Shown: piece after piece, positions 1,076-29,994 of the stretch
Layout of the letters: every line of letters starts with the position of its first letter
Numbering within the stretch: the stretch's first letter is position 1
Assembly (NCBI GenBank): GCA_020348925.1
Contig: CP070758.1
Span: 2,183,688-2,247,687 of the forward strand
From: Gemmatimonadota bacterium
GTDB lineage: Bacteria; JBHIER01; G020348925
Direction: 5' to 3'
Length of the DNA stretch: 64,000 bases
Program-made: the position numbers and the translations under genes
Notes under the pieces: model-generated
Seen by the model: the letters and a program-made list of their open reading frames with translations, nothing else
Databases searched by the model: none
Told to the model about the DNA's origin: nothing

Positions 1076-1140
1076 CGTTCTCCTTACTCGTGTCTCGTGA
1101 GAGATGGTGACATGGTCCTTATCAGACTCGATCTCAAGAT

Positions 1141-2193: not shown

Positions 2194-2209
2194 AGGTCAC
2201 TCCGTTTTT

Positions 2210-7091: not shown

Positions 7092-7412
7092 AAAAACTTT
7101 CGTGTCCGCATCTTTGTACCAATATGTTGCTCTGTCCTCGACACTCTTGGCACTATCCCCCTCATCCCCGTAAAACCCATTCCCGTTCGAATCCCAATAC
7201 TTATTCTCATCCTTGACCGGATGGTAAATTTCCGGATCGGTCTCATCGGTGAGGATGCGGGCATCCGGATCGAAGTAGTCAACGCGGAAGCCTATATTGA
7301 CTATAAAATTCTTGAATTCGATTTTATCCTGAATATATCCCGAGAACTCGATCGGATTGTATTCGTAACGACTCGTATGAATGGTCGTATCGGAATATAT
7401 CTGAGGATGAAT

Positions 7413-9332
7413 TTACGGATTTTCCCAAAAGAGATTTTTGTCGATCTCCAACGAGTCCGGTTGCACTGTTATATCCTCAAAAAACAAAGAATGATGGCGG
7501 ACTTCGGTACCCCATTTGAGTTGATGGATCCGTGTCACTTGGGCGGTCCAGTCGGTTTTTCCCAGCCACGTCTTGGTGTCACGCTTGAAGCGCTGATTAT
7601 TCGTGCCACCCGTATGGAAACTGTACGGGTCGAGATCTATCAACAAGTAGTCGTGCACATAGCTCGTATCATCCCGGTTATCGTAAACAGAATGCCAATA
7701 TCTCTTTAAGAAATACGACAGCGAGCTTTCATAAAACACTTTGGAGTTCAACGTATGGGTGAATTTTAGAATGTTAACGTAGCCCCGGCGGTGCCGCTCC
7801 ACATCCCCATCCGGGTTGTACTGATACATCCGTTCGTAATCCCGGTAGTCAACACCGTCATAGATGAAGTTGTACGAAAGCTGGGCCTGGGGTGTTATTT
7901 TATAGATCAACTTCGTCTGATTGTAAAGTTTCTCACTCCAGTTCATGGGCACGTATTCCCCGTCTCCCATTCCACCCTTGTGAACTTGGCGAAAATAGTC
8001 CACGATCTCTCCGGTATAAGCGGCAATCGTGTCAGGATTATTTCTATGTTCCGGGGGAATAATTGCGTCGAGGATTTCCTCATACATCCAATCATTAATG
8101 ACCAGATGTGAATCGATAACGGCGTTTGAGCCTAAAATATATTGCACCGACTGAAAATGACCTTCCGCGTCTGTCGCTCGACCAAGGGAAAGATACTCCG
8201 GCGCAAATGCTTCCAAATACCAGGTGGGCAGACCGTAAACCGGGAGGTCGTACACGACGGTATCAACACACTCGTCTTCTTCCCATATACACCGTACATA
8301 ATCTGAGCTATCTATTTCTTCCAAGTCCCAATACCATGAGGGAATACGTTCGACCGGGAAGCTATCCACCTCGGTATTCTCGAGTTCAAAAAGTGGTCCG
8401 GTCACCGCACTCGGATCATAGCGCCGCTGTCCGTACTGCCACCCGTCAAAATGGATACCCCGCCCGTTCACGAAAAAGAAAAGCTTGTCCTTGATAATGG
8501 CCCCACTCAGGTTCCCCTCAAAATTTCGAATGGCAAAGGGATCGACACGGCTGATGGCTCTGAAGATATGATCGTTATCGCTGGCATAGTCTCCGATATA
8601 CCCTGTTATCGAGCCACTGAATTCGTTGCTCCCCTGTTTGGTCGCAATGTTCACAATGCCGGACATGGCCTGACCGTATTCGGCATTGTACGCCCCGCTC
8701 ACAAGCTGCATCTCCTGCACCATGCCTTTGCCCACTTCAACCACTTGATTGCCGTCATAGACATCAGTCACAGGCACGCCGTCAATCCAGTAGGCGATCT
8801 CCCCGCTCCTCCCCCCTCTCAGGTGCAGACCGTCCCGATCCACAATGCCGGCCTGAAGCTGGAGAGCCTCACTGACCTCAGTAATGGGCAGGGCCTCCAT
8901 CTGCTTGGCCTCGACAATAGCCGTGGAGGCGGTCAGATCTTTCACCACCATTTGCCGCTCGGCCGTTACCGTAATGGCCTCACCAAGGGCGATCACCTGG
9001 GATTGGAGCTGAAAATCGACGGTTGTCGTCAGATCGAGAGAGACATTGATATTTTCGATCCGCATGGATTGATAGCCGATCATTGAAGCTCTGAGGGTAT
9101 ACGCGCCTGGGGGGATATTGAGCATCACGTAATACCCGTCAAAATCCGAAGCCGCTCCCATTGAGGTTCCCTCGACGATGACATTGGCGAAGGGGAGCGG
9201 TTCACCGCTCTCCGTATCGACGATCCTGCCGGCAATTTTCCCTGTTGTTCCCCACAATGAAACGCCCGCCCAGGAGAGTACGAGCAGAACTGTAAAAATG
9301 GAAAGACAAGAGAAAGCTCTTTTTTCTCGCAT
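7413..9332 (-). CDS. N-terminal part of a SusC-like TonB-dependent receptor: signal peptide, carboxypeptidase-regulatory-like domain, plug domain and the start of the barrel. It ends at an in-frame TAA.
   Basis: GKIAGRIVDTESGEPLPFANVIVEGTSMGAASDFDGYYVMLNIPPGAYTLRASMIGYQS matches the CarbopepD_reg-like domain. ...ITVTAERQMVVKD...LRGGRSGE... matches the plug. It is colinear with the 1081-aa paralog at 32607-35852. Confidence 0.75.
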   Translation of the reverse strand: MREKRAFSCLSIFTVLLVLSWAGVSLWGTTGKIAGRIVDTESGEPLPFANVIVEGTSMGAASDFDGYYVMLNIPPGAYTLRASMIGYQSMRIENINVSLDLTTTVDFQLQSQVIALGEAITVTAERQMVVKDLTASTAIVEAKQMEALPITEVSEALQLQAGIVDRDGLHLRGGRSGEIAYWIDGVPVTDVYDGNQVVEVGKGMVQEMQLVSGAYNAEYGQAMSGIVNIATKQGSNEFSGSITGYIGDYASDNDHIFRAISRVDPFAIRNFEGNLSGAIIKDKLFFFVNGRGIHFDGWQYGQRRYDPSAVTGPLFELENTEVDSFPVERIPSWYWDLEEIDSSDYVRCIWEEDECVDTVVYDLPVYGLPTWYLEAFAPEYLSLGRATDAEGHFQSVQYILGSNAVIDSHLVINDWMYEEILDAIIPPEHRNNPDTIAAYTGEIVDYFRQVHKGGMGDGEYVPMNWSEKLYNQTKLIYKITPQAQLSYNFIYDGVDYRDYERMYQYNPDGDVERHRRGYVNILKFTHTLNSKVFYESSLSYFLKRYWHSVYDNRDDTSYVHDYLLIDLDPYSFHTGGTNNQRFKRDTKTWLGKTDWTAQVTRIHQLKWGTEVRHHSLFFEDITVQPDSLEIDKNLFWENP

Positions 9333-11835: not shown

Positions 11836-12364
11836 TTTACCTCCTTACTCCAGCAAAAGTGATTGGGAACTTTCCCATTTAAATAATTGCATTGACCTCC
11901 ACAAAATGGTTTTAAGGAACACGGGATTCATAATATAGTCTTTTTCGAAAAAGTCAAGGGTTTTTTGGAGAACGCACCGAAAATATTTCGTATATAGAAC
12001 TCAATTCACTTTTTTTTATTTGCTCCAGTGTCTCGGAGGCAAAGAATCCCAATTCGCCTTCGGCCTTCTCATCCCCTCGAAATCATAATAGTATGACACC
12101 AGGACGGATCGCAATAAAGTAAAGACGTGGGATAATAACCTTGCACATTTTTCTCAAATGTTTACATTAATAATTGTCAATTCATTATCAAAAAAAGGTC
12201 AACTTCGCAACCTCTATATTAGTAAAACACTATATTACAATTTCTTACAGAATATAAAGAAAAGCAAAAAAAAATATAAGAATATATCATACTGAATATA
12301 ATTAATTTAGAGATATCTATGCTGCTTATTATAAAAAAGATTTGCTAATATAATATTTTTTTAC

Positions 12365-12400
12365 TTGACATATTAACGGAGATGTACTAATATATTAGAA
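12365..12400 (+). promoter_or_regulatory. Sigma70-like promoter: TTGACA, 17-nt spacer, TAATAT. It sits in an extremely AT-rich stretch with no ORF downstream.
   Basis: ttgacatattaacggagatgtactaatatat was read directly. The next credible CDS on this strand is about 1.2 kb away. Confidence 0.35.
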
Positions 12401-12719
12401 GTCAGAGAATCCGTAAGAATCAGGTAGGCTTAAAACGGAGGGAGACGAACGTCATAAAATTTCTGTGTAATAAATTCCGTTTCGTTCTCGTTCAATGAGA
12501 GACGTTTTTCTCTGCTCCGGTTTGGAATCGGAACTGTGAGTGAGAGATCTTTTGTACATGAACAAGTGAAACACGTATGATCCGAAGGTTGTTTAGACAC
12601 AACCTTTGGACTGGAGGTCACGACGCCTCTACGATGTTTCCCCGATGTTCCACATTGAAGAAGAAAGGGGGTCCTTCACTTTTCAACAATTGAATAGGTT
12701 TGGTAATTAGGGCATGCAG

Positions 12720-12975
12720 CTTATAACCTGATTCATTCATGAAATGCTATTCCAACTGAAGCGAACCTATTGCAGACCGCTGCCACAAACAGATTTCTCC
12801 ACTCCGATCGAAACGACAGAATGTGTCATTCTGAGCGGAGCGTAGCGGAGTCGAAGAATCTGTATGGCAATATTTTGCAGAGTACGGGATGACAGCCTTG
12901 GTTTTCTTCATGAATAATTCAGGATAAAGACACCCAGGCCAAAAGCGTGTCGTAGAGCTGGTCACGACGCCTTCT
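12720..12975. repeat. Copy A of an approximately 230-bp non-coding direct repeat. Its core is GACAGAATGTGTCATTCTGAGCGGAGCGTAGCGGAGTCGAAGAATCT, flanked by TTCATGAAATGCTATTC... and ...GGTCACGACGCCT.
   Basis: Aligns with copy B at 13090-13335 over multiple blocks. Confidence 0.6.
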
Positions 12976-13089
12976 TTACGCTCGTTTGATATACTTCGGT
13001 TATTGTGTTATGGTACACTAATCGAAGTAGAATGAGTGAGGGGGCGTTTTTTATTTTTCAACCTTCTTCAATTTTGTCGGAGGTTATGT

Positions 13090-13335
13090 CTAACCCGATT
13101 AATTCATGAAATGCTATTCTGACCAAAGTATAGCCATTGCGAAACCGTTGCTGAAAAAAGGTGCCTTCACGGAGTCTGCTCCGGGCTTATCCTTGGGATT
13201 GAAATGACAGAATAGTCATTCTGAGTGGAGCGAAGCGTAGTCGAAGAATCTAAAGTGCAACAACCTCCAGTTTGCTGGAATGGCAAACCGCGTTCTGTTT
13301 GTGAATGATTCAGGCGAAAACACCACGAAAATCTT
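13090..13335. repeat. Copy B of the approximately 230-bp direct repeat (GACAGAATAGTCATTCTGAGTGGAGCGAAGCGTAGTCGAAGAATCT).
   Basis: Aligned by eye to copy A. Shared blocks: ATTCATGAAATGCTATTC, the core, and AATGATTCAGGCGAAAACACC versus AATAATTCAGGATAAAGACACC. Confidence 0.6.
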
Positions 13336-13606
13336 GAATATGAAGAAAGTTTGACGTTTTGAGATCGATGTGACGATGCTTCTTTTTCTTTGCTGGCCAA
13401 AGAAAAAGAAGCAAAAAGAAAATCCAGCCGCAAGCCTTCACCGGGACCATCGTCGGCTCGCTTCGCTGTTTTTCCGAAACTCGTCCCCGCTTATGCGGTG
13501 ACTCAGACAGCCGGAAAAACGACGCTTCGCTTGTCGGATGGTCCAGCGGTTCAGGCTTCAGGGCATCTGAGTTGCATTATATGCCATAGAGACTCGACCC
13601 CCTGGA

Positions 13607-14362
13607 TTGGCAATATCCAACGGAGGGGGTGACACAGAGAAAATGGTACGAAGGGATCATTGCAAAGGGAGCCGTTCTGGCAAGCGTGTTACTGGTGCCA
13701 ACCTGATCATTTTGGTAGCGGCATTAATGGGTAGTGCATATGTGCTGGCGATGGCCTTACGTTCGTCGGAGTATTGGTGGGTAGCCTGGATTTGCTTGCT
13801 ACCACTATTTTGGGCAATTCGTACTTTGAAGCCGATAGGAGCCTCTCTCTCAGGTGCCATCTGGGGCATCGGCTTTTTCCTCTTTTCAATTTTTGGCACA
13901 GAAGCTGTACTATCGTCAACCTCCATTTCCCTAACTCTCTTAGCAATAGTACCTGCTCTTTATTGCGGTCTCGGCTCATTGCTAACTCGACGAGTCGGCT
14001 TCAATCCACTGCTACTGGCACTCAGCTGGATCGGGGTGGAGTTCGCCTTCAAACCACTTGGACTACAAAACGGTCTTTTAGCCGAGACACAAGCTGATAG
14101 CACCCATTTTCATTGGATCGGTCGCTTACTCGGTTACATTTTCATAGCTTTCCTTGTCGCCTGCATAAACGCAACACTCCTCGCTGTTCTAAGTAATGTC
14201 CGTATATCTATTCCTCACGAGAAATCAATATTTAAGGGATTGTCTAATTCTGAAATATGCCCCGCAGTACTAACATTCCTGTTATGTCAACTTTCGACTC
14301 TTCATCAGATATATCCCCGTGCTCCTCCGATTCCGAATAGGATTAGGATCTGGCACATTTAA
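13607..14362 (+). CDS. Polytopic membrane protein of unknown function. An alternative start is at 13643 (MVRRDH...).
   Basis: At least 6 predicted hydrophobic helices. It is the first gene of the lower-GC plus-strand islet. Confidence 0.45.
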   Translation: MAISNGGGDTEKMVRRDHCKGSRSGKRVTGANLIILVAALMGSAYVLAMALRSSEYWWVAWICLLPLFWAIRTLKPIGASLSGAIWGIGFFLFSIFGTEAVLSSTSISLTLLAIVPALYCGLGSLLTRRVGFNPLLLALSWIGVEFAFKPLGLQNGLLAETQADSTHFHWIGRLLGYIFIAFLVACINATLLAVLSNVRISIPHEKSIFKGLSNSEICPAVLTFLLCQLSTLHQIYPRAPPIPNRIRIWHI

Positions 14363-14415
14363 GTTTTTTATAAATTGAAATCAAGAATAGATCAAACAAA
14401 GCGGAGGTGAGGAGA

Positions 14416-15276
14416 ATGAAATCAATGAAATTGGCCATTTCGTTGATTGGTGTAGTGTTCATAGTTGGAACCTTGCCAGAAAATGGCTTTACCCATATTA
14501 CAGGATGCCCTCATACACATACGGCTATTCGAACAAGAGTCGAATGTAATCCACGTTTTGGTGGACAAGCTTGCACTTGCCCTACATGTGGGGGGGCTGG
14601 AACTTGTAGAGAAGTGGTAGGCAATCTTTGGCGAGATTGTCTCTGTATTTGTTCTGGATATCCTCATAACAAGAAGAGTGCTGGGACGATAGTCTATGGA
14701 AGCAACGTTTCAATAACTATTCCAGGAACTTCTTACTTTGAATTGGATGAATTGTCCCAAGAAAATGAGATAGTAATATGGTTAGGTGATGACTATGAAA
14801 ATCCCATTTTAGATGTTACAGACGGGATTTCAGGCACTGTTACTCTTCAGTTTGGGGAAAGTGATGTTGCTACTCACATACCTGTTCAACTTCTCGACTT
14901 TACTTTTACTTTCCCGTCCTTTAAGGTACAAAAGAACGAAACAGGTGTAAATAGTGCTTACCTTGATCCAAATTTTGCCGCTATCTTAGTATATAACCGT
15001 GAAACAGGCGAACTTAGTACTGAAGAACCTTTGCATGTCGTAACAATTAATGATTTATACACCGATCTTAATCCACTGAAAGGTCTTGCCAGCATAAATG
15101 GCACTATAGACGAAGAGACCGGCGAACTGTTCGCTTTTATTTTTGAGGAAGCAACGATTACTTCAAGGCCTCCAGTACCCGCTCTCACCAAATGGTCCAT
15201 CTTAGTCTTGCTACTAATGCTTCTCATAGTTGCAGCTTGGTTCCTTTGGAGAAAGGAAAGAGTGGCTACGGCGTAA
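14416..15276 (+). CDS. Secreted Cys-rich protein with an exosortase-type C-terminal sorting signal: VPALTKWS motif, TM helix, then an RKER basic tail. This is IPTL-CTERM-like.
   Basis: Signal peptide, then 10 Cys within about 50 aa (CPHTHTAIRTRVECNPRFGGQACTCPTCGGAGTCREVVGNLWRDCLCICSG). The C-terminus is ...PPVPALTKWSILVLLLMLLIVAAWFLWRKERVATA. ATG at 14416 follows a GGAGGTGAGGAG RBS; the tracker start at 14407 is a GTG. Confidence 0.6.
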   Translation: MKSMKLAISLIGVVFIVGTLPENGFTHITGCPHTHTAIRTRVECNPRFGGQACTCPTCGGAGTCREVVGNLWRDCLCICSGYPHNKKSAGTIVYGSNVSITIPGTSYFELDELSQENEIVIWLGDDYENPILDVTDGISGTVTLQFGESDVATHIPVQLLDFTFTFPSFKVQKNETGVNSAYLDPNFAAILVYNRETGELSTEEPLHVVTINDLYTDLNPLKGLASINGTIDEETGELFAFIFEEATITSRPPVPALTKWSILVLLLMLLIVAAWFLWRKERVATA

Positions 15277-15960
15277 TCCATACAAGAAGCAAGATTTTTA
15301 GAGAAAAAGCCCTCGCTGTTCTTAGCGGTGGGGGCTTTCTCTACGTTTGGACTCTAACTTTTCGAAAATTATCTTGGCGTTTCAATGTATGGAAATAGAG
15401 GACAAATTTTTTATTGACTTTCAATTTCAATTTTACTATCATAACACAAATCAAAATTTAAGAAAAAAGCAGCTTTCGAGATATTAAAGGATGTAGATCG
15501 GATTTTGACGAAGATACCCTCCGTCATAGTGGTTTTGTTTTCGATCGTTAAATACGAAGATTGCCACGCTATGAACCATTACGGTTCATAGCTCGCAACG
15601 ACAGACAGAAAAGAATCCCTCTCAGCTCCTCCTTCGACTGAGTTTATCCCGAGCGAAGTCGAAGGGCTCAGGACAGGCTTTACAAAAGGGAGAAGGTTAC
15701 ACCTCTTGAAATCTCCACTTCATAGGGGAGACTTTTTCCCTCCTGTCCCAAAGAGAGGGATAGGGAGGTTGTTTGAGATAGAAAAGTAACGAGGTTTTAA
15801 TGGCGTTGACTTGAAAGCATTAATTGGCTCAAGCATTAGCCACTTATACAGTCCGGCGAGTAAAGCCCTTCGACGAAGTTTTAGATTGAACGAATTTAAA
15901 CTACTCAGCATAAACTCGTACATCACCGTAGGTTCGAATTAAAATTCTTCGCTATAGGAT

Positions 15961-16530
15961 ATGACAAAAAAAATCAAAAAAATTCCCTTAGCCGAGAGGA
16001 TCTCCAGTCTGCTGCGTATGCACAGAGAGATTGTGAAATTCTGCCTTCTCTTCACTTTATACATTGGTACCTTTTTCGGTCTCTTTATCCTCGCAACGGT
16101 GTATATGTTGAAACCACTCGTTGCCCTCAATGTATTCACTGCCAAATCCGTTCAGATTGCAGCGAAATTGCTTGGCATGCACGCATCAGCAAGCTCCAGC
16201 TACCTCACAGTGAAAGGCTTTTCAATCGAGGTTATTACCGAATGCACAGGGCTGTTCGCAGCTTTCGTCTTCCTGGCCTGCGTCCTGGCCTATCCTACAA
16301 AAATCATGAAAAAAGTTTTCGGCATAATCGCTGGTATCTTCGTCATTTATATTTTAAATATTATGAGAATGATCTGCCTGATCATGGTCGGCATTTGGAC
16401 GCCGCAGCACTTTGACTTCGTCCATGTCTACCTATGGGAAGGAGTCTTTATCATCGTCGTTCTCATGCTCTGGCTGGTGTGGCTCGATAAGGTGGTGAAA
16501 GATGTCAGAAAGGTTGCAGTTTCTGGGTAG
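15961..16530 (+). CDS. Short exosortase/archaeosortase-family membrane protein (candidate sorting transpeptidase for the upstream CTERM protein)
   Basis: 189 aa and polytopic. It has a candidate active-site Cys in ...ITECTGLFAAF..., then about 38 aa later an NxxR motif (ILNIMRMI), then H...G (QHFDFVHVYLWEGV). This is the Cys / Asn-Arg / His order and spacing seen in EpsH-family exosortases. Confidence 0.5.
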   Translation: MTKKIKKIPLAERISSLLRMHREIVKFCLLFTLYIGTFFGLFILATVYMLKPLVALNVFTAKSVQIAAKLLGMHASASSSYLTVKGFSIEVITECTGLFAAFVFLACVLAYPTKIMKKVFGIIAGIFVIYILNIMRMICLIMVGIWTPQHFDFVHVYLWEGVFIIVVLMLWLVWLDKVVKDVRKVAVSG

Positions 16531-17089
16531 ATTTCTCATATTTGTTTCAGTCATTTTTGTTCTCTTTTATTTCTTCGTTAATCCGTACTACCGTCAGATC
16601 TTCAACAAGATCGCCTGGCTGCTGTATAAATCCAAGACACCATACGGGGAATACGTGACCTTTCACGTCCGCTTTTTCAACATCATCCCCTTCCTGGCCC
16701 TCATGCTGGCAACTCCCAAAATAAAGATCCTCGAACGGCTCAAATTGATCGGTATGGGACTGGTCATTATCTTTATCATCCACTTCCTCTTCCTCCTCAT
16801 CGGGCATGCTTACACCCACCAGGCCCAAACTTTTCTGCAGCGGATGCTCTCATCGACCTCCAACGCCATCGGTCAGGTGGCCGTCCCTCTTCTGGTGTGG
16901 TTTGGGCTTGCACATAAATATATTATAAAAACCTTCAGGCCGAGAACGGTCCCCACACCTCCATCCAGTTCAACGGAACAAAAATGCCCCTTCTGCGGGA
17001 AGAAGAAAAAAGGATTGAAGGAACATATACGGTCGGTTCATGGGCAGGAGGACGGGAGCGAGAAGGCTATGAAGAGGTATGGGAGGTAA
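16502..17089 (+). CDS. Membrane protein with a C-terminal C2H2-like zinc-finger motif (CPFCGKKKKGLKEHIRSVH). It overlaps the preceding gene by 29 nt.
   Basis: N-terminal hydrophobic helices, then CxxC-x9-HxxxxH. The start overlaps the stop of the exosortase-like gene, suggesting translational coupling. Confidence 0.45.
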   Translation: MSERLQFLGRFLIFVSVIFVLFYFFVNPYYRQIFNKIAWLLYKSKTPYGEYVTFHVRFFNIIPFLALMLATPKIKILERLKLIGMGLVIIFIIHFLFLLIGHAYTHQAQTFLQRMLSSTSNAIGQVAVPLLVWFGLAHKYIIKTFRPRTVPTPPSSSTEQKCPFCGKKKKGLKEHIRSVHGQEDGSEKAMKRYGR

Positions 17090-17239
17090 TGTTGTAGCAA
17101 CCGGTTATTTCTATCAAGAAGATTCCGGCATGGAGTTTACCCCGTATTCAATTTCGGGGATCGGAATGACAAAAAGTGGAACTGTATGTCTTAAACAACG
17201 TCTCGACGGAGTCTCGCCCTCCCCCACTATAATGGGATC

Positions 17240-17350
17240 AATTCTGCTTAATTCATAGGCTGTCATTCCTGCGTATGCAGGAATCTCCTCGTTCAGGGTA
17301 ACCTGCTTTATTTCGAGGAGATTCCGGGATAAACCCGGAATGACAGGCTG
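17240..17350. repeat. Cluster of REP-like hairpins of the GTCATTCC...GGAATGAC family (CATTCCTGCGTATGCAGGAATC and ATTCCGGGATAAACCCGGAATGAC).
   Basis: Inverted repeats were read directly. Translation yields the classic spurious IPAYAGMT peptide (ORF 17114-17389). Confidence 0.6.
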
Positions 17351-17524
17351 GATGAAATTGTGAGCTTTTGAAACTGAGTTAAAAACCATTGATTATCGTA
17401 AGCTACATAACACTTAATTGTTACATATGATTCTGCAAAGTTCTATGAATAACCCAGGCAACAAAAAAGCCGCCGAGTAGAGAATACCCGGCGGCTGTTG
17501 ATACCGACTATTGATGAAAGCTCA

Positions 17525-20500
17525 CTACTTCATGAGCACCATGCTCTTGGTCGCCGACCATCGGCCGCGATCAACAGACAGCCGATAGAAATAGATTCCA
17601 CTGGAGACCTCGTTCCCCAGGCCGTCCCTGCCGTCCCATGTCACCGTGTAGTACCCCGGCTTCCTAAATTCATCCACCAGAGTCCGCACCTCCTGCCCCA
17701 AGACATTATAAATCTTCAGGGTCGTGTGGAGTGGGGATCCACCATCAACTATCTGATATCTAATATCTGTCGCAGGGTTGAAGGGATTGGGATAGTTCTG
17801 AGCGAGGGAGAACTCCTGAGGCACCTGGCCGCCCTCCACGTCCGAGGAGGTTTTCATCTCTTCGATTTGGAATGCTCTGCCGCTAACGTCGACCAGAATC
17901 AACTCGTCGAGCAAAACGTCACTGGATTCCGAAGATATGTCGTAGGGGACGGTAACCATCGGTTCGTCGCCTGGAGTCATGGCTCGACCATCGGTACTGT
18001 ATAAGACAAAGATCGTCCCGTCGTCCTTTCGATTCGAGGCTACGGTCATTCCTGGATTCCGGTGACTCCAGACGGGTTCTCCGACCGATACTCCATCTCC
18101 ATATTTGAGACGGAACTGGACACCGGCAATAGGCACGTCCGCCTGCACATACATCGCACACTCGCCTCGGGTGTCGCACGTCATCGGAGCAGTCCGAACC
18201 TCAACCCGGGCCGACGCCCGCCCCTCCGGTATGACCGCTTTGGGGTTGAGGATCCTGTTGACGATATTGATGGCGTCAATAATGTCCACCCCCCCGTCCT
18301 CATTGAAATCGGCCGCCCACTGCGCGTAGGCACTGGTCTCCACCCCCAGCACGACATTGACGGCACCAAGCACATCGATGATATCGATGTTGCCATCGCA
18401 ATTGACATCACCCCGCTCAACCTTGGACCAGATCATAATATCGTCGACCGTCCAGCCATCAGCCGTCCCGGCCTCATCGCTCACCACACGAAAGCGAATG
18501 CGGACCTCTTCATTGCCTGGGCCACAGAATCCCTCCAGGAGAGTGCACCGCTTCTTGACCGGATAACCGTCGAAGCCGGTAAAACTCTCCAAAGCCGTCC
18601 AGCTCTCACCGTCACTACTGGCCTCCACGTAACCGAAATCATTGCCATCCTCAAAGGAGTAAAAATGCCAGAATGTGAGGGCCGCTTCCGTACAGGAAGA
18701 GAGATCAAAGGCCTCCTGATACATCAGAGGGTTATCCTCATTGTCCTCGTAATCCCCTTGCGGGCTGTCGACAATGGATGTGGAGTTGTTGACACCGAAG
18801 CCACCCAGCCCCGACCCTGTTCCCAGATCCCATCCTCCAGTCCCGGTCTCAAAATCGCCCAAGACGAGATAGGGAATAAGTTCGAAAGCGAAGACGTCAG
18901 AAGTCGCCGTATTGTGGTTGCTGGACGCATCGACGACCTCAACATAGTAATTGACAATATCTCCGAATTGTCCGGACCATTCTAACGTCGCTCCGTATTC
19001 TTCGGGTATGCCTGTGCCCGTCATCAATACTCCAGTAAACGGCTCGTCATTGAGCTGATAATACAACGTCACCTCTCCAACCCCCAGATTGTCGGTCACT
19101 TTGGCGGTGACCTCTCTTTCCCCGGAGAGGAGATAGGTATCCGGCAACTGATCGACCCTCAAAATCTCAGGCGCAGTCACATCCGGTTGAACAGCGAAGG
19201 CATGGACCTTCGTGGGAGCTCCCAGAGGCGATTGCCATTCGTAATACGGATTTTCCGTGGTGACATAATATTGGATTGTGGTCTCGGTTCCGGGAGGAGG
19301 TATCGTCCCGGCGTACACTCCATCTCCCCGATGCGTCATGGTCACCGTGGAGAAGGACGGCGATGTTTCCTTCTTCCAGTAGAGCGTAACACCCGTGAGA
19401 TCGCTGATGTCACCGGTCACGGTCACCTCAACCGGATAGGAACTGCTCGGATCCTCACTATCTTTCAGCGGATCGTGCCAGATGAAGTTCACCCAGTTGA
19501 GGATCCTGGTCATCACTTCTGTCCTGACGGCCGATGGTTGTGACGGATCCAGTTCAGGCGTCGCATCAATAGCCTCAAAACCGAAACCGAAATATATGAC
19601 CCGGTGATCACCCTGGTATTTGATACCACCCTTGTGATGCAGGCCACCTGCATATTCAAAGACACCACTGGCCCCGGGGCCGGGCTCAATTTCGTCAGGG
19701 TACTGTTGATCAGCATCCCGACCAGGATGATAGATATCGAAACTGAGGCCGTCACCGATTTCGTCCCCGAGGATACCATCAACGCTCTGAATACCGCTGT
19801 TATCGGCATAATAGACGGCGTGCAAATAGTTTTCGTAGAAATCGACGAATCCGGAACGATCGCCCTCGTTGAAATCCCAGCCGACATCCTGGCCGGAGAT
19901 AAAGAGGTTTCCGCCGTTGTCCAAATAGTCCTCTACGGCGGCCATGTCTCCAACGTCCAGACTGGGGAAGGTCCACTCGCAGGCCCAGATGACGATGGGG
20001 ACATTGGAGAGAATAAACGGGGTCGGGCTTCCCAGGCTGGCGTGATCCCAGACCGCATACAACACGTTCAAGCCGTCCAGGATGTTGGTGTAGTACCCCT
20101 CAACGTTGTTCTCGCCATCGTCGTCATCGACCAGGAGAACGGGCATCTTGCCAAGAATAACCGCGAAAGTATCCGTACCGCTGATGCCACCATCAGCGAG
20201 AAACTGTAAGAAAAGCCTGGCCATGTGTGGCTCAGCATCCGGGGCTATGGAAAAGACCAAAGGATCCGAAGTCGCCTGAAAGGTGTCCGCAGGAAACGTT
20301 CCCACAAAGGAACTGCCATCGTCGATCGTCAGATCAGGATCGTCAGTGTCCAGAGAGACCTGAAAATTGGTCGCAGCCCCCAGCGAGTAATTTCGGTATT
20401 GGGCAGTGACGTTGATTGTCTCACCTCGCTCGAAAAGGCCGTCACCGTCACCGTTGACCGCATCGTCCGGTGTCACGTTAAAATTGAGAATCTTTGGCGG

Positions 20501-21955
20501 GACCTCCGTCAAGACCGTAGCAGTGACAGCATTGTACGCATTGACGCGCCCGCTGCCCAGAAGCCCCTCGAGACCGGGATTCTGCGCGTCGATATTGTCT
20601 GCCGTGAGAGCCACCTGTCTGACAATACGGTCGTTAGACCAGCCCGGATGCTGGGATTTCACCAGCCCGCACAGACCGGCCACGATGGGACAGGACATGG
20701 AGCTTCCGTTGGCGGAACCGTACGAGCCGCCAACGACAGGTATGGTCGTTAGCGTCTGCGTTCCGGGGGCACAGACGTCGATGGAAATACCGTACGTGGC
20801 TTCTCGCCTGTCCTGATTATTGATCCATCCCGCGCTGAGAACATTGACATAGCTGGAAGGATAGTGTAAAAGATCGGTATCGTCATTCCCCCCGGAGGCC
20901 ACGACAATACTGCCCAGGCCGTAAACATAATCGATCACATCCTGATTCGCCTGGGAATAACTGCCGAAGCCACCCCAACTGCAGCTGATGATATCCGCCC
21001 CATTTTCGGCCGCGTAAATGATTCCCTGATACCCGAAGGAGACGAAACGAGGACTGTCGTCGTAACTGCACTTGATGGCCATGACCCTGCAGTTCCACGA
21101 CACTCCGGCGACCCCTGTACCATTGTTCGTCACGGCGGCGGCCAGTCCGGAGGTTAAAGTACCGTGATCATAATAGCCCTGAGCATCCGGAGTGGGGTGT
21201 GTCGGATTGTTGTCCTCTTCAGCCAGGTCGTAGCCGATGAGATCGTACACATACGTCTCCGAATTGTTGTCCCAATCGTCATCGTCGACACCGTTGAGAT
21301 CGCCGGGGTCCAGGACCCAGCCGCCGTCCACCCACTCGAGAGTATGGCCGTCCCCGTCGGCATCCTCCCCCAAGTTCTGCCAGATGTTATCGAGCAGATC
21401 AGGATGCTCCCAATCAGGTCCGTTGTCAACTATGGCAATAACTATAGCATCGTCACCATGCTGGATGTCCCAGGCTTGGGCGGCCCGTATGCGGGTCATA
21501 AACGTCTGCTGACCGAACATCGGATCATCCGGTGTTTCTTCAATGACCGGCACGGAGATGGGCTCGGCGTACTCGACGTTCGGATCCTGCGCAAATGCAC
21601 GCGCCACCGATTCCGGATCAAGGTGCGGTGGAAACGAAAGAGAATAGATCCGAGACAGATCCGGCAGACCGGAGCCGTCAGGGATGGGCCTGTGTTGAAA
21701 CCGTTTTCTCACTTCCTGGACGGAGAACCGGTCCATCTTTTCGTCGAAAGAGCTCATTCCAGTGACGGTGAAACGCTCCGTCCCTTTGGCTACCACATGA
21801 GGTTTCAACTTCACGACCACCTTCCCGGGCTCGAGTGTGGCCGACGCTGGGCCCGACAGTGTATGGGACTTTGTATATTGACTTCCCACCCCCGGTATTG
21901 AAATACTTAGAATGAAAAAGCTGAAAATCATAGTACCGGCTATTATACGTCTCAT
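17525..21955 (-). CDS. Very large (1476 aa) secreted subtilisin-like serine protease (peptidase S8) with a T9SS type-A C-terminal sorting domain
   Basis: Signal peptide. S8 catalytic motifs: IAIVDNGPDWEHPDL (Asp), DHGTLTSG (His), GSSMSCPIVAG (Ser). The C-terminus is ...LAQNYPNPFNPATDIRYQI...KIYNVLGQEVRTL...WDGRD...SGIYFYRL...KSMVLMK. Confidence 0.85.
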   Translation of the reverse strand: MRRIIAGTMIFSFFILSISIPGVGSQYTKSHTLSGPASATLEPGKVVVKLKPHVVAKGTERFTVTGMSSFDEKMDRFSVQEVRKRFQHRPIPDGSGLPDLSRIYSLSFPPHLDPESVARAFAQDPNVEYAEPISVPVIEETPDDPMFGQQTFMTRIRAAQAWDIQHGDDAIVIAIVDNGPDWEHPDLLDNIWQNLGEDADGDGHTLEWVDGGWVLDPGDLNGVDDDDWDNNSETYVYDLIGYDLAEEDNNPTHPTPDAQGYYDHGTLTSGLAAAVTNNGTGVAGVSWNCRVMAIKCSYDDSPRFVSFGYQGIIYAAENGADIISCSWGGFGSYSQANQDVIDYVYGLGSIVVASGGNDDTDLLHYPSSYVNVLSAGWINNQDRREATYGISIDVCAPGTQTLTTIPVVGGSYGSANGSSMSCPIVAGLCGLVKSQHPGWSNDRIVRQVALTADNIDAQNPGLEGLLGSGRVNAYNAVTATVLTEVPPKILNFNVTPDDAVNGDGDGLFERGETINVTAQYRNYSLGAATNFQVSLDTDDPDLTIDDGSSFVGTFPADTFQATSDPLVFSIAPDAEPHMARLFLQFLADGGISGTDTFAVILGKMPVLLVDDDDGENNVEGYYTNILDGLNVLYAVWDHASLGSPTPFILSNVPIVIWACEWTFPSLDVGDMAAVEDYLDNGGNLFISGQDVGWDFNEGDRSGFVDFYENYLHAVYYADNSGIQSVDGILGDEIGDGLSFDIYHPGRDADQQYPDEIEPGPGASGVFEYAGGLHHKGGIKYQGDHRVIYFGFGFEAIDATPELDPSQPSAVRTEVMTRILNWVNFIWHDPLKDSEDPSSSYPVEVTVTGDISDLTGVTLYWKKETSPSFSTVTMTHRGDGVYAGTIPPPGTETTIQYYVTTENPYYEWQSPLGAPTKVHAFAVQPDVTAPEILRVDQLPDTYLLSGEREVTAKVTDNLGVGEVTLYYQLNDEPFTGVLMTGTGIPEEYGATLEWSGQFGDIVNYYVEVVDASSNHNTATSDVFAFELIPYLVLGDFETGTGGWDLGTGSGLGGFGVNNSTSIVDSPQGDYEDNEDNPLMYQEAFDLSSCTEAALTFWHFYSFEDGNDFGYVEASSDGESWTALESFTGFDGYPVKKRCTLLEGFCGPGNEEVRIRFRVVSDEAGTADGWTVDDIMIWSKVERGDVNCDGNIDIIDVLGAVNVVLGVETSAYAQWAADFNEDGGVDIIDAINIVNRILNPKAVIPEGRASARVEVRTAPMTCDTRGECAMYVQADVPIAGVQFRLKYGDGVSVGEPVWSHRNPGMTVASNRKDDGTIFVLYSTDGRAMTPGDEPMVTVPYDISSESSDVLLDELILVDVSGRAFQIEEMKTSSDVEGGQVPQEFSLAQNYPNPFNPATDIRYQIVDGGSPLHTTLKIYNVLGQEVRTLVDEFRKPGYYTVTWDGRDGLGNEVSSGIYFYRLSVDRGRWSATKSMVLMK

Positions 21956-22427
21956 TATACTCTTCTCCTTAAAATTCCCTCGATTTTAATGTCAGTGACA
22001 TGACATTCGGATTGACCGCGTGTCGCAGTCGGTTTCGTAATCCTCCCCCTAAACCGTCACACATGCTTCCCCTTTCACCCAACCCTCAATACTTCCATTG
22101 AACTGCAAAGGTTTCACGTTTCTATGGTGGCTCCCTCCTTTTTATGATTTTTTTAATTTGGTTGGTTTATCAGCATCATCGTCAGCATCTTCCCCGGCGT
22201 CGTCTTAATATATATCCTTTGAGCCATATGAAACAACCGCAACACAATCATAGGTATTGAATGATATACAATGACAGGACAATAATCCTTGACTTAAATC
22301 AAAACACTGAAAATGAGCCATACGGGTGACGTGTCCGGGTTGACTGCACCATAATGAGAAAAAAGCCACTGAGTCCTCTGGACCCAGTGGCTTTCCTCAT
22401 ATTCTGACCTTTCGATCAGAAGGTCGG

Positions 22428-24674
22428 CTATTTCATCAGAATCATCCGTTTCGTACTCGTGAAGGTGCTGGTTTCGAGACGATAGAAATAAACACCACTG
22501 GCCACATCCAGTCCGGCATCATCTCTACCATTCCAAAGAACGCTGTAGGTTCCAGCGACATGCTCACCGGCCTTCAGAGTCCGAACCTTCTGACCCAATA
22601 CGTTGTACACGGCCAACTCGACAAAGCCATCCTCGGCCAATTGATAGTCGATCCTGGTCTCCGGGTTGAAGGGATTGGGATAGTTCTGAGCCAAGTGATG
22701 ACTCTGCGGAATGGCGGCATCACCACGGGCGGGGTTCACACCAGTGCTTGTTTCGAACCACTCGAAGACCTTCTCGATCGTCTGCGTCAATCCCGCTCTC
22801 GGTAAGAGATCACCGTTCTCCAGAGAGTCAAAAGCAAAGAAGTCGGCCCACGGGAGAAAACACGTCTTGTATCCGCCCCCGTCCTTGCGCACACCGGCTC
22901 CAAAGCCCGTGCCCACAGCGGGATCAGGGTCATACTGAAATATCTGCTCGGCACCTTCCGTTATAGCGACGATCCAGTCCGGCCACAGGTCAAGCGCCGG
23001 GTCAGTCGGATCCCAGGCATCGGGCAGAAAGTTCACACGAATACCCTCGAAATCCCCCATTCCCACGGCCACACTGTCGTATCCACCGTCGTCGGCACCG
23101 TGGTTATCGCTGATGGCATGGGCGACACCGAAGTAGTCGTACATGAACTCACCCACATCATGCTCCTCGTCCCAGTCGCAGTCATACTCCTGGTCGTGTA
23201 TACAGTAATAGTCCTGGTCGATGTACAGCAGGTTATGGGGGTTCTCGCTCGTTCCTGCATCGAGCCAATCGACAAAGGGGTTACCGGCATAGCTCCCACC
23301 GCCGGGTAGGGTGTTCCCACAGCCCCACCCCGAGATGTAGATGGTGCTCCAGCCGTAGTTGAGGACGCTGGCATCGATGCCCTGCATCTCAGCGTTGTTC
23401 CACAATTCGTACTCGTACTGCGTCCCCAGACTGGCCATCAGATCGACGAAGAACGTATCAAGGTCCGGTGTCGATTCATAATCCCAAACGAGGAGAACAT
23501 CCGCACCGGGATGCTCTGGGGCAGTCCGAGCGAAGGTGATCCTGCTTGAGGCTCCCACGAGGCCGGGAGTATCCGTCGCCTCGAGCCAATACGAGACCAC
23601 ATCTCCAGGATTCAGGGCAGGGATCGTGGCCATGAAGGTGTCCGCTTCGCCCTCTTCCATCGGCAGCTCGTTGACGGTTCCGTTGAGATCGTACTTAAGT
23701 GTTGCCGAAACCACCCCGGCCCGAGTCGGATCCTCGGCATCCAGATCCTCAATGACCGCTTTGATGGGAAAAGGCCCTGCACCGTACGTATAGTTCTGCG
23801 CTTGAATATACGGATACGTGGGCGGAGTGTTTTCGTAGTATACGATCACGGCGTCGTACCACATGAAGTACTGCCGGATGAACCATCCATCGTGAGGACC
23901 GGGTCCTTCGCCCGCTGAGTAGAACTTGAAGAAGTTAAAGGGTGTTGTCCAGTCGTACTGGGAGTAGAAACCCCATCCAGCCGTCTGGTAGTAAACCATG
24001 CCAATGTAAAAGGGGTCACGGCCCAAATCGATCTCGCCCTGCAAACCATATGCGGCGGGAATCTCAATCCACACATCAGCATGATCCCTGGTCACGGTGA
24101 ACGGAAACGGTCCCCAGTAATGGTCGAGGTCGTCATCAACAGGATTGGTGATATCATCAAGAGCACTCAATCCGAGCGGGGAGTGACCAACAATATCACC
24201 CGGAATCCACCCGTTGGGATCCGTGATCGGCTCAAAAGTACCCCACCATCCACTGGCATCCGTGCTATCCGTGGAGTAGATGAGAGGATCGTAGTTTCTG
24301 GCATCCCAGATATCAACGAGCAAATTCCCCTCCCAGTTGATGGGTCGGAAACGAATGGCCAGCAGGCTGCAAGCGGCCGCCGGTTTCAGGTAAACAAGTG
24401 ATGAGTCGCCGGGATTGAGGAACCCGAAGTTCACCAGTGTCGAGGCACCCGGATTCCGCCACGTCAAGGTGTCGATGATACCCGTGGTTCCCAAAACCCC
24501 CGGTGTCCTGTGGGGTGTAGGCAGAGGTTTTTTCTGGTGTATGGATTTGAATGCTTTCACATCGTTGTCCTGCCCAGGCCTCAGAATGGCAATCTCACCC
24601 GCATACGCAGCCACCGTCAGACCGAAGAAAATTGCACACAGTAAAAGAAAAGCAGGTAATCTTCTCATCATCAT
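22428..24674 (-). CDS. Secreted protein (748 aa) of unknown function with a T9SS type-A C-terminal sorting domain
   Basis: Signal peptide MMMRRLPAFLLLCAIFFGLTVAAYAG. The C-terminus is ...LAQNYPNPFNPETRIDYQL...VYNVLGQKVRTL...WNGRDDAG...SGVYFYRL...KRMILMK. Confidence 0.8.
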   Translation of the reverse strand: MMMRRLPAFLLLCAIFFGLTVAAYAGEIAILRPGQDNDVKAFKSIHQKKPLPTPHRTPGVLGTTGIIDTLTWRNPGASTLVNFGFLNPGDSSLVYLKPAAACSLLAIRFRPINWEGNLLVDIWDARNYDPLIYSTDSTDASGWWGTFEPITDPNGWIPGDIVGHSPLGLSALDDITNPVDDDLDHYWGPFPFTVTRDHADVWIEIPAAYGLQGEIDLGRDPFYIGMVYYQTAGWGFYSQYDWTTPFNFFKFYSAGEGPGPHDGWFIRQYFMWYDAVIVYYENTPPTYPYIQAQNYTYGAGPFPIKAVIEDLDAEDPTRAGVVSATLKYDLNGTVNELPMEEGEADTFMATIPALNPGDVVSYWLEATDTPGLVGASSRITFARTAPEHPGADVLLVWDYESTPDLDTFFVDLMASLGTQYEYELWNNAEMQGIDASVLNYGWSTIYISGWGCGNTLPGGGSYAGNPFVDWLDAGTSENPHNLLYIDQDYYCIHDQEYDCDWDEEHDVGEFMYDYFGVAHAISDNHGADDGGYDSVAVGMGDFEGIRVNFLPDAWDPTDPALDLWPDWIVAITEGAEQIFQYDPDPAVGTGFGAGVRKDGGGYKTCFLPWADFFAFDSLENGDLLPRAGLTQTIEKVFEWFETSTGVNPARGDAAIPQSHHLAQNYPNPFNPETRIDYQLAEDGFVELAVYNVLGQKVRTLKAGEHVAGTYSVLWNGRDDAGLDVASGVYFYRLETSTFTSTKRMILMK

Positions 24675-24875
24675 TCTCCCTCATTAGTTTTTCATCTCAA
24701 TAAAATTTCACGTCGTGCTGAAACAAAGACTTTAGAATTTTCGGAAACGTCGCCTCACCTCCTTTCAATGAAAAGAAAACCTCACACACCAGCTGTAGGA
24801 ACAAAAAATCATCACCCCCTTTCTCAAATTGAAACAGATTTGTGCTACCCTCCTTCATGAACCATTGGTTTTCTC

Positions 24876-26027: not shown

Positions 26028-26083
26028 AGCCCGCTCCTTCGAAAGATTGAAAATGATACGATTTCTTGTCGCATACATTCGAT

Positions 26084-28732: not shown

Positions 28733-28916
28733 AACCAGCCCCCCTTTTCTGATTGTGACAATCGGTCAGAGGAGATCGTAAACGTGCGGAGAATTCTCAA
28801 GAATTCCTGCTCTCGACAACACCCCCTGTCGTTGCCCGGTGTCTTTCTCCGTCCCTTCAATTCTCCTCCCTCTGCGTATATTGTATCGTAACTGTACTCT
28901 TTGAAGTTTATCTCTC

Positions 28917-29942: not shown

Positions 29943-29994
29943 CTTAGCGCCCCTCCTTCTATGAATGCTTTGGTCTCTGGATATTTCATATGTC

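Follow-up and report, generated by a model that had tools for sequence, protein, structure and literature searches.

The gene block at positions 13607-17089 of the window (the whole 64-kb stretch of DNA that was analysed) can be described with high confidence as a three-component exosortase H / archaeosortase B sorting locus, in which a native sortase-partner pair is accompanied by a variable, compositionally foreign cargo cassette and by an unrelated lnt remnant. The system is a known one, and the locus represents it in an ordinary form. According to GenBank the DNA belongs to a Gemmatimonadota MAG, and the source is a diderm bacterium with many T9SS genes. The block consists of four plus-strand genes, ORF1 to ORF4, all found at the positions given for them in an earlier note made from the sequence (Table 1).

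Table 1. Features of the sorting locus and its flanks (positions in the window)
Feature	Position	Strand	Remarks
Left-flank local duplication, noncoding	12724..13279	.	two copies
ORF1, LNT_N membrane domain	13607..14362	+	251 aa; Pfam LNT_N 53.6 bits, full domain
ORF2, cargo gene, secreted Cys-rich protein	14407..15276	+	289 aa from GTG start
Tripartite sorting signal of cargo	15175..15273	+	residues 257-289, read directly from the sequence
Noncoding spacer, cargo to sortase	15277..15960	+	684 nt, GC 40%
ORF3, exosortase H-type minimal sortase	15961..16530	+	189 aa from first ATG
ORF4, partner membrane protein	16502..17089	+	195 aa; GenBank UCE20261.1, 'hypothetical'
C2H2-type zinc-finger motif of partner	16985..17041	+	C162-x2-C165-x9-H175-x4-H180
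Right-flank palindromic element	about 17251..17347	.	about 95 nt

The sortase

The assignment of the 189-aa protein to the exosortase family, as an enzyme of the XrtH type, is supported by profile matches. It passes TIGR04177 (XrtH; 97.4 bits, cutoff 86, E 8.3e-28, profile positions 1-153 of 158), and its membership in the superfamily is evidenced by TIGR04178 (59.6 bits, cutoff 23) and PF09721 (36.8 bits, cutoff 25.7). The highest raw score of any HMM, 106.5 bits, came from TIGR04144 (ArtB), whose cutoff of 150 is not reached. In GenBank a shorter model of the same gene (UCE20260.1, 165 aa from a GTG at 16033) bears the name "exosortase H". Cys95 / Asn133-x-x-Arg136 / His155 follow one another in the exosortase motif order, and all four residues are invariant among 30 homologs. 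Four transmembrane (TM) helices are predicted, and in the resulting topology the putative catalytic Cys95, Arg136 (in NxxR) and His155 would be located on the outer face of the membrane. Because the protein passes these HMMs and the C-terminal motif of the cargo has relatives in related loci, the exosortase claim of the earlier note survives.

The cargo and its C-terminal signal

The product of ORF2 is a credible sortase substrate, judging by its tripartite C-terminal signal related to IPTL-CTERM. GenBank starts the same protein at the ATG at 14416 (UCE20259.1, 286 aa). Its N-terminus carries a signal-type helix, residues 34-82 contain 9 Cys, and the tail is composed of RPPVPALTKWS, a 19-aa hydrophobic helix (ILVLLLMLLIVAAWFLW) and the basic stretch RKERVATA. 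The IPTL-CTERM architecture, an extreme C-terminal tripartite tail combined with an N-terminal signal peptide, is therefore present as had been proposed, but the expected match to TIGR04174 did not appear: neither this model nor PF18203 matches the tail at E<=10. Weak matches were noticed to midcut-by-XrtH (18.9 bits, cutoff 45) and VPAMP-CTERM (14.3 bits, cutoff 32), and none of the curated sorting-signal models is reached. One tail of this type occurs in the 64-kb window of the 5.04-Mb genome. Outside the tail no relatives of the protein were found among 5.8 billion clusters, which makes it an orphan, and nothing can be learned from its AF2 model (pLDDT 40).

Comparison with other loci helps to place the signal. 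In a syntenic relative (L003) two differing cargo genes occupy the corresponding position; the tail of one, LPTLSEWG-TM-RKRGVTTA, passes both TIGR04174 (33.9 bits, cutoff 20.5) and PF18203 (29 bits, cutoff 20.8), and that of the other reads PMLSDLG-TM-RRRRTVTA. Tails of the form VPVLSP, VPALSP, VPLFSP and VPAVSQWG adjoin the sortase in archaeal and bacterial loci. In its motif the cargo tail combines features of VPXXXP-type and IPTL-type signals, lying between the VPxLSP tails of archaea and the canonical LPTLSEWG tail that stands beside the 69%-identical syntenic sortase.

Right behind the cargo stop codon there is a hairpin with a T-run (about 15309-15345, recognised by eye and not reported by the hairpin scan), and the spacer further contains a promoter-like site at 15414-15442, so the cargo gene and the sortase-partner pair are probably separate transcription units. 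Partial decay of the region is evident from this junk-rich spacer of 684 nt and from the lnt remnant nearby, so it is not certain that the cargo is expressed.

The partner protein

The start of ORF4 overlaps the end of the sortase gene by 29 nt. Of 27 related loci from bacteria and archaea, about 21 have a partner gene that directly follows the sortase gene or overlaps it; this count includes one locus (L009) added by eye from sequence motifs, and most of the remaining loci end too early. In a search of 1.84 billion proteins 109 family representatives were found, nine of which are fusions of sortase and partner; all five of the fusions scanned (P0016, P0026, P0048, P0080 and P0094) are matched by NCBIfam sortase models. 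With overlapping genes, a frameshift or an assembly error could have produced some of these fusions. By gene order the partner is a conserved component, translationally coupled to the sortase, and the overlapping TM protein with a C2H2-like tail of the earlier note is thereby confirmed.

Remote homology links the partner to the NCBIfam family "exosortase H-associated membrane protein" (NF041730). Aligned by hhalign with the XrtH_assoc-like (NF041730-like) group, the partner family reached 99.8% probability (E 4.5e-30). NF041730 (cutoff 35) gives no match at E<=1 on ORF4 itself; P0071, a member of the NF041730-like group that the ORF4 profile retrieves (E 9.5e-6), scores above this cutoff with 35.3 bits, and in total 27 of 103 partner family members match the model.

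The partner is probably also a paralog of the sortase, and a catalytically dead one. Deep profiles of the two families align in hhalign with 95.1% probability (E 3.3e-8) over 136 collinear columns, with controls (the reversed profile and 30 column-permuted ones) reaching at most a score of 17.6 and 1.1%. The families matched by non-fusion partners are XrtH_assoc (27), pacearchaeosortase (12), ArtE (2), ArtD (2) and XrtG (1); XrtH_assoc being the partners' own family, the matches aside from it are mainly to sortase families. Motifs correspond in sequence and position (FLALxLATPxIK of the partner to FLACVLAYPTK of the sortase, P..LW to LWxxW), and the partner has a predicted four-TM layout collinear with that of the sortase, without the catalytic triad.

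The zinc-finger motif at its C-terminus is kept from bacterial to archaeal partners. In the AF2 model the tail forms a beta-beta-alpha element (pLDDT 73-78); Pfam zf models stay under their cutoffs there (12.5 and 13.9 bits), and similarity to PDB C2H2 fingers is weak (E about 0.04). The tail is basic (net charge +9) and predicted to be cytoplasmic.

The upstream membrane gene, flanks and neighbourhood

ORF1 is probably a remnant of lnt, an N-terminal fragment of apolipoprotein N-acyltransferase, and lies outside the sorting system. On the full-length Lnt model TIGR00546 it reaches 21.2 bits (cutoff 132.9). The CN-hydrolase domain is absent, and there is no space for it since the next gene begins after 44 nt. 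Its GC content is flat across codon positions (0.50/0.46/0.44), no homolog occurs at the 27 related loci, and the protein itself is absent from a 15-billion-protein collection, with five starts tried. As an LNT_N fragment absent from all related loci, ORF1 can no longer be counted as a member of the system, where the earlier note had put it.

Repeats are present in both flanks. The left-flank copies are spaced about 370-390 nt apart and share a core of about 210 bp (about 78% identity) with the box GTCATTCTGAGCGGAGCG-AGCG-AGTCGAAGAATC, and a perfect 16-bp hairpin is located at 13377-13413; the right-flank element consists of CTGTCATTCC...GGAATGACAG with two internal hairpins. The two flanks have nothing in common, and no tRNA, integrase or transposase was found, so the repeats had to be rejected as island boundaries.

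Among the Pfam-matching ORFs checked elsewhere in the window all are on the minus strand. The other long plus-strand ORFs overlap longer minus-strand ones; that at 77-1180, for example, has no Pfam match and lies opposite T9SS-CTD-coding sequence. Within the ORFs checked the block is the only one on the plus strand, as had been claimed for the first 61 kb. Its neighbours encode PorV-like proteins, T9SS cargo, TonB receptors, LacI and DapA, and the gene next to the sortase-partner pair encodes an S8 protease. It was rightly observed that exopolysaccharide (EPS) genes are missing, as none lies within about 15 kb, but it is not atypical: the related loci that were examined include no EPS locus, and the lack of one is not anomalous for this clade.

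Origin of the locus and alternative explanations

The GC content of the block is 43.8%, against 51.3% in the whole window. The estimate of about 40% by eye was somewhat too low, nevertheless the compositional shift is real: the block belongs to the lowest 4.5% of windows of equal size, and its tetranucleotide distance is the largest in the window. The trough extends in full from 11836 to 17524, with the minimum (40.4%) in the noncoding left flank. This zone, with the lowest GC and the largest tetranucleotide distance of the window, the strand of the block, the far-off third-position GC (GC3) of the cargo and the repeats and hairpins on both sides would suit the idea that all four genes are a recently acquired mobile module, enclosed by repeats and made up of a single sortase with its single substrate. 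Such an origin is quite unlikely, and for ORF3 and ORF4 it is largely refuted. GC3 is 0.58 in the sortase and 0.63 in the partner gene, within the host range of 0.62 +/- 0.045, and their low overall GC is due to codon position 2, i.e. to the hydrophobic residues of membrane proteins. The order sortase-partner-S8 protease is shared with the relative (identity 69% in amino acids and 73% in DNA), and dN/dS of the sortase against this relative is about 0.19, comparable with 0.13 of the adjoining protease; the unrelated flank repeats and the lack of integrase, transposase and tRNA speak against mobility as well. Purifying selection, synteny and host-like GC3 thus indicate that the sortase and its partner belong to the host and have been passed on vertically, and only the cargo gene, ORF1 and the noncoding DNA are compositionally atypical. 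Foreign origin may still apply to the cargo gene, perhaps together with the lnt fragment, as a cassette acquired horizontally or rapidly replaced beside the resident pair. This is rather probable, and it adds to the preferred explanation instead of competing with it. GC3 is 0.32 in the cargo gene (about 6.6 SD under host genes) and 0.44 in ORF1, the cargo is an orphan, DNA similarity to the syntenic relative is absent left of the sortase gene, and the two cargo genes of that relative are unrelated and have a lowered GC3 too (0.48-0.50). On the other hand the low GC3 could reflect low expression or relaxed selection, a donor was not identified and mobility genes are lacking.

It could also be argued that ORF4 is an unrelated small membrane scaffold, whose profile likeness to the sortase arises from convergent TM-helix composition while the two proteins still cooperate. 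An initial comparison of shallow profiles gave a probability of 6%, ORF4 alone matches no sortase model, its AF2 model has pLDDT 54, and no PDB relatives were found. This explanation is nonetheless unlikely in view of the deep profiles, which align collinearly far above the reversed and permuted controls, the motifs agreeing in sequence and position, and 16-17 non-fusion partners that independently match curated sortase models. It is very unlikely that the whole locus is a decaying, non-functional relic in which no sorting takes place today. The truncated ORF1, devoid of a codon-position signal, and two noncoding stretches rich in repeats (1.8 kb and 0.7 kb) would suit such a relic, but the sortase and the partner are intact, keep all conserved residues and are under purifying selection, and ORF2 is an intact frame of 289 codons that encodes a signal peptide and the full tail and shows clear codon periodicity (GC 0.49/0.43/0.32).

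Proposed mechanism

To our knowledge archaeosortase A (ArtA) of Haloferax volcanii is the only member of the superfamily with an experimental study, and we know of no exosortase of the H subtype that has been studied by experiment so far; every enzymatic step is therefore proposed by analogy. The cargo would be exported by Sec via its N-terminal signal peptide and kept in the inner membrane by the C-terminal helix, with VPALTKWS at the outer face and RKERVATA in the cytoplasm. Cys95 of the sortase, with the help of Arg136 and His155, would then cut at the motif so that the helix is removed, and the new C-terminus might be transferred by transpeptidation to a lipid or another acceptor, as suggested by archaeosortase A. 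The partner, made by coupled translation, most likely pairs with the sortase as the non-catalytic subunit of a heterodimer; it may serve in docking of the substrate or acceptor and would expose its basic zinc-finger tail to the cytoplasm.

Comparison with known systems

The XrtH system (TIGR04177) is closest in plan. The sortase passes its cutoff and has its minimal size (about 160-190 aa), a membrane partner follows directly downstream, and the cargo tail repeats the hydrophobic-Pro-x-Leu-Ser/Thr-x-Trp signature, TM helix and basic tail of XrtH substrates; the cargo of the syntenic relative even passes both IPTL-CTERM models. In contrast, the cargo tail (VPALTKWS) and the partner of the window are both under the curated models, the NF041730-like group is devoid of the C2H2 zinc-finger tail, the sortase scores higher, in raw terms, on archaeosortase B, and a single cargo is seen locally.

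The likeness to ArtB (TIGR04144) goes beyond this best raw score, under cutoff as it is. The closest non-bacterial relatives of the sortase are archaeal (Thermoplasmatota/Euryarchaeota MAGs, about 40% identity) and possess an overlapping zinc-finger partner and adjoining VPxLSP-type cargo tails, and one close bacterial homolog is labelled ArtB by JGI. The window differs from ArtB / VPXXXP-CTERM in its bacterial host and in VPALTK, which lacks the second Pro of V-P-x-x-x-P; the archaeal relatives do have it (VPVLSP, VPALSP and VPLFSP).

With ArtA / PGF-CTERM of Haloferax volcanii the superfamily signature, the Cys/Arg/His triad and the tripartite substrate logic are shared. The putative catalytic triad of the superfamily was defined in 10.1101/2023.06.07.544157, and ArtA removes the C-terminal helix of tripartite signals and is needed for lipid attachment (PMC6098224; 10.1101/2023.06.07.544157). 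ArtA is much larger (the TIGR04125 profile has 271 positions and gives the window's sortase only 35 bits) and recognises PGF, unlike VPALTKWS here. In the literature searched a dead-paralog partner is not documented for ArtA, whereas the sortase of the window has a candidate one.

Pairs of an active enzyme and an inactive paralog exist in membrane proteolysis, for example rhomboid/iRhom. The likeness lies in a dead paralog kept beside, or fused with, the active enzyme; there is no homology to the pair of the window, and the role of a dead subunit would hold here by analogy. It can be said that the partner is the under-described component of an otherwise ordinary member of a known system.

Composition and gene content of the block

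The four plus-strand open reading frames (ORFs) described in the earlier note at 13607-17089 are real and encode a 251-aa LNT_N fragment (ORF1), a 289-aa cargo protein (ORF2), a 189-aa sortase (ORF3) and a 195-aa partner protein (ORF4). The block lies on the plus strand, as had been noticed, the remaining window being essentially minus-strand coding. Its neighbours are DapA, a LacI-type regulator, pieces of a TonB-dependent receptor, two PorV-like proteins and several large proteins with a T9SS C-terminal domain (CTD); there are no EPS genes among them, and the reported absence of an EPS locus holds. The compositional shift is equally genuine, with a GC content of 43.8% for the block vs 51.3% for the window, a value within the lowest 4.5% of equal-sized windows of the 64 kb, and the block is the strongest tetranucleotide outlier in the window. 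The deepest part of the GC trough is the noncoding left flank. GC3 of ORF3 (0.58) and ORF4 (0.63) is within the range of the 31 minus-strand genes used as host reference (0.623 +/- 0.045, minimum 0.534); the low overall GC of these two genes stems from codon position 2 (0.32 and 0.34 respectively), as expected with hydrophobic proteins. Truly atypical are ORF2, with a GC3 of 0.32, and ORF1, with a GC3 of 0.44 and no periodicity.

ORF1 holds a complete LNT_N domain (53.6 bits) without a CN-hydrolase domain and scores 21 bits on the Lnt equivalog model vs a cutoff of 133. No homolog was found across 27 related loci and no match in PDB, and it is absent, with five possible starts searched, from a 15-billion-protein collection where ORF2-4 were found. 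A role as a functional lipid-handling accessory was considered and rejected due to the lack of conservation in related loci, of a catalytic domain and of coding-type GC periodicity. ORF1 most likely represents the remnant of a gene and has no relation to the sorting system.

Coordinates of the features of the block and its surroundings
Feature	Position	Strand	Remarks
ORF1	13607-14362	+	ORF confirmed
ORF2, cargo	14407-15276	+	ORF confirmed
ORF3, sortase	15961-16530	+	ORF confirmed
ORF4, partner	16502-17089	+	ORF confirmed
GC trough	11836-17524
Left-flank duplication	12724-13279		two-copy local duplication; core ~210 bp, ~78% identity, spacing ~370-390 nt; the left flank also has a perfect hairpin
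Cargo-sortase spacer	15277-15960		684 nt; many hairpin-like boxes
Spacer box	~15560-15603		GATTGCCACGCTATGAACCATTACGGTTCATAGCTCGCAACGAC
Spacer box	~15640-15680		...CCCGAGCGAAGTCGAAGGGCTCAGGACAGGC
Palindromic element	17251-17347		~95 nt; between ORF4 and converging S8 protease gene; CTGTCATTCC-hairpin-spacer-hairpin-GGAATGACAG
Terminator of S8 protease gene	17496-17468	-	strong; belongs to the protease gene itself
T9SS neighbourhood	17525-32523 and 1-6127	-	dense
CTD-coding DNA repeat	17580-17800 vs 26133-26353
PorV-like proteins (two)	1141-2193 and 28917-29942	-
TonB-dependent receptor, apparently split	6150-9332	-
TonB receptor part	7413-9332	-	CarboxypepD_reg, Plug and start-of-barrel domains
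TonB receptor part	6150-7091	-	C-terminal barrel part only
Bacterial RNase P RNA class A	59746-60160	-	274 bits
tRNA-Val(CAC)	61139-61215	-

The T9SS neighbourhood includes an S8 protease of 1476 aa that carries dockerin and T9SS C-terminal domains, and at least three further large CTD proteins, whose CTD-coding segments appear as DNA repeats with 35-nt NPFNP-coding boxes. The two parts of the TonB-dependent receptor are separated by a gap of ~320 nt with a local GC dip to 46%, and may represent a disrupted gene or an insertion.

The sortase

Exosortases are widespread; nevertheless, to our knowledge no bacterial exosortase has been biochemically characterised, and we know of no established acceptor chemistry for these enzymes. 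The 189-aa protein had been proposed to be exosortase-like, and it passes the curated cutoffs of NCBIfam exosortase H (XrtH; TIGR04177, 97.4 bits, cutoff 86), of the exo/archaeosortase signature (TIGR04178, 59.6 bits, cutoff 23) and of Pfam Exosortase_EpsH (36.8 bits, cutoff 25.7). Its top raw score belongs to the archaeosortase B (ArtB) model, 106.5 bits, which is under the cutoff of 150. Cys95 (in ECTG), Asn133-x-x-Arg136 and His155 are invariant across 30 homologs, and the catalytic triad of the family is taken to consist of these Cys/Arg/His residues (10.1101/2023.06.07.544157, PMC6098224). An identical protein is held in GenBank as UCE20260.1, "MAG: exosortase H [Gemmatimonadota bacterium]", on a 5.04-Mb contig; ORF2-4 are UCE20259-UCE20261 (JSV84_07960-07970) in this record. 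The exosortase claim is therefore correct and already present in public annotation, and due to this existing label the locus contributes little as one more XrtH system. Judged by the curated sequence models, it is of the XrtH kind, placed at the ArtB/XrtH border.

The partner as a probable paralog of the sortase

The overlapping transmembrane (TM) protein with a C2H2-like tail was borne out as well. The overlap of ORF3 and ORF4 is 29 nt, with a Shine-Dalgarno-like AAGGTGGTGA upstream of ORF4; it is the same in the related locus L003 and 4 nt in archaeal loci. A sortase gene followed by a partner gene is found in ~21 of the 27 related loci (L009 being counted by eye from sequence motifs), most of the others ending too early for the presence of the partner to be judged.

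ORF4 alone matched no curated model. Its family aligns at 99.8% probability (E 4.5e-30) to a group of ~190-aa proteins, one of which (P0071) passes NCBIfam NF041730, "exosortase H-associated membrane protein". A first, shallow hhalign comparison of partner and sortase had given 6%; with the deeper profiles that came after, the probability rose to 95.1% (E 3.3e-8), the ORF4 and sortase families aligning collinearly along 136 columns, while the reversed and 30 column-permuted controls scored 17.6 or less at a probability of at most 1.1%. Independently of this, twelve non-fusion partners matched the pacearchaeosortase model, and others matched ArtE, ArtD and XrtG. At the column of sortase Cys95 the partner has a variable residue; there is no equivalent of Arg136, and the position of Asn133 is taken by His or Asp. 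Taken together, the alignments identify ORF4 as a probable paralog of the sortase that is catalytically dead. The topology suggested by the positive-inside rule and by collinearity has the N-terminus inside, four TM helices and a cytoplasmic zinc-finger tail (the tail of ORF4 has a net charge of +9), with the sortase triad at the outer face. A PDB sequence search with sortase and partner profiles returned nothing meaningful, and the AF2 model of ORF4 (4-sequence alignment, pLDDT 54) was too poor for use.

An exhaustive HMM search of 1.84 billion proteins gave 109 partner-family representatives. Nine of them are putative natural single-chain fusions of a sortase domain followed by a partner domain (P0016, P0026, P0048, P0080, P0094, P0109, P0053, P0023 and P0083); three of the nine have the zinc-finger tail too, and in the first five the sortase half is matched by NCBIfam models. 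The C2H2 tail is present in 39 representatives, and in two (P0044 and P0088) it is replaced by a SecA-like SEC-C zinc-binding motif (CxCGSGKKxKxCCG), which indicates that a small basic cytoplasmic zinc-binding tail was acquired at least two times by the partner family. This "hypothetical" protein stands for a family common to bacteria and archaea, with overlapping genes and fusions as its ties to the sortase. In a literature search of limited reach, neither the partner as a sortase paralog nor its zinc-finger tail was found described. A few members of the family, ORF4 included, give weak matches to the HpsJ and 'HpsJ-like protein, cyanoexosortase A-associated' models, so that the family may be related to the accessory membrane proteins that accompany other exosortase subtypes.

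The cargo and its sorting signal

At its N-terminus ORF2 has a signal-type helix; nine Cys lie between residues 34 and 82, and the protein ends in RPPVPALTKWS-ILVLLLMLLIVAAWFLW-RKERVATA. Apart from this tail the protein is an orphan among 5.8 billion clusters searched. Its AF2 model (pLDDT 40) was too poor for use. A lipobox (ITGC at Cys34) was considered on reading by eye and rejected, since the His at -4 and the length of the spacer that follows the hydrophobic stretch misfit the usual pattern.

The earlier reading of the tail as IPTL-CTERM-like stands in part: related tails adjoin related sortases, but the IPTL-CTERM models are not reached, and the matches obtained, midcut-by-XrtH at 18.9 bits and VPAMP-CTERM at 14.3 bits, are weak. 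A syntenic relative (L002/L003), 69% identical and with the same S8 protease downstream, has two different small proteins at the cargo position. One of them ends in ...LPTLSEWG-TM-RKRGVTTA and passes both IPTL-CTERM models, and the second ends in ...PMLSDLG-TM-RRRRTVTA. Directly beside the sortase in related loci VPVLSP, VPALSP, VPLFSP and VPAVSQWG tails are found. As the tails of relatives span VPXXXP to IPTL, VPALTKWS can be seen as an intermediate in a continuum, and this intermediate motif parallels the intermediate HMM scores of the sortase. VPXXXP-CTERM signals grade into IPTL-CTERM signals, and ArtB into XrtH enzymes, as a single continuum whose intermediates are missed by curated models; by the sequence comparisons, both the cargo signal and the partner diverge enough to evade them. 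In archaeal UBA202-type loci (L008/L013/L014, 1-3888) a large protein upstream of the ArtB-like sortase has a PGF-CTERM-type tail (GGIPGFELL...YRRK), the signal of another archaeosortase (ArtA), so adjacency alone cannot define a substrate.

Origin of the block

The block had been read as a horizontally acquired islet flanked by repeat elements. Repeats are present on both sides, but the left and right elements are unrelated to each other. The left-flank duplication contains a GTCATTCTGAGCGGAGCG(T/A)AGCG(G/T)AGTCGAAGAATC box and has no further copies elsewhere in the 64-kb window; in many genomes of environmental bacteria, boxes of this kind are found as small elements dispersed over the sequence. 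The boxes of the cargo-sortase spacer look like decayed miniature repeat elements, and the spacer has no Rfam or Pfam match. No tRNA, integrase or transposase remnant was found around the block, and an Rfam scan of the noncoding flanks gave nothing at gathering thresholds or permissive E-values. Six-frame fragments of the flanks had zero Pfam matches, hence neither mobility-gene remnants nor traces of the Lnt hydrolase domain were found there.

DNA similarity between the window and L002 amounts to 73% for sortase and partner and 71% for the S8 protease, and ends left of the sortase gene. The sortase has a dN/dS of ~0.19 and the protease one of ~0.13; in the partner, pS is saturated and pN is 0.30. 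The sortase-partner pair is resident and constrained, and the cargo side varies and has a foreign composition. For the enzyme pair the islet reading is therefore rejected, given its host-like GC3, synteny and constraint, and acquisition is kept only as a possible history of the cargo cassette. The site that the cargo gene occupies next to the stable sortase pair behaves like a replaceable cassette.

Proposed mechanism and comparison with known systems

The steps of sorting are inferred on the precedent of ArtA, where cleavage is linked to lipid attachment (PMC6098224). The cargo would be exported by Sec and stay anchored in the membrane through its C-terminal helix, the sortase-partner complex would recognise the motif, helix and basic tail, and Cys95 would attack at the motif, upon which the helix would be released and the new C-terminus passed to an acceptor or hydrolysed. 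In practical terms, reconstitution will probably require co-expression, the pair suits complex prediction, and two proteins of ~190 aa each with one adjacent substrate would make a convenient minimal experimental system. It is conceivable, albeit rather doubtful, that minimal XrtH/ArtB-type sortases are obligate active/dead heterodimers, sometimes fused, with a cytoplasmic zinc-binding reader tail, C2H2 in this clade and SEC-C in others. On this reading the tail might recognise the conserved R-K/R-x-R-V-T/A-T-A end that the cargo exposes to the cytoplasm, or it might link sorting with translocation. If true, such an obligate heterodimer would for the first time define an accessory-subunit architecture among exosortases and archaeosortases.
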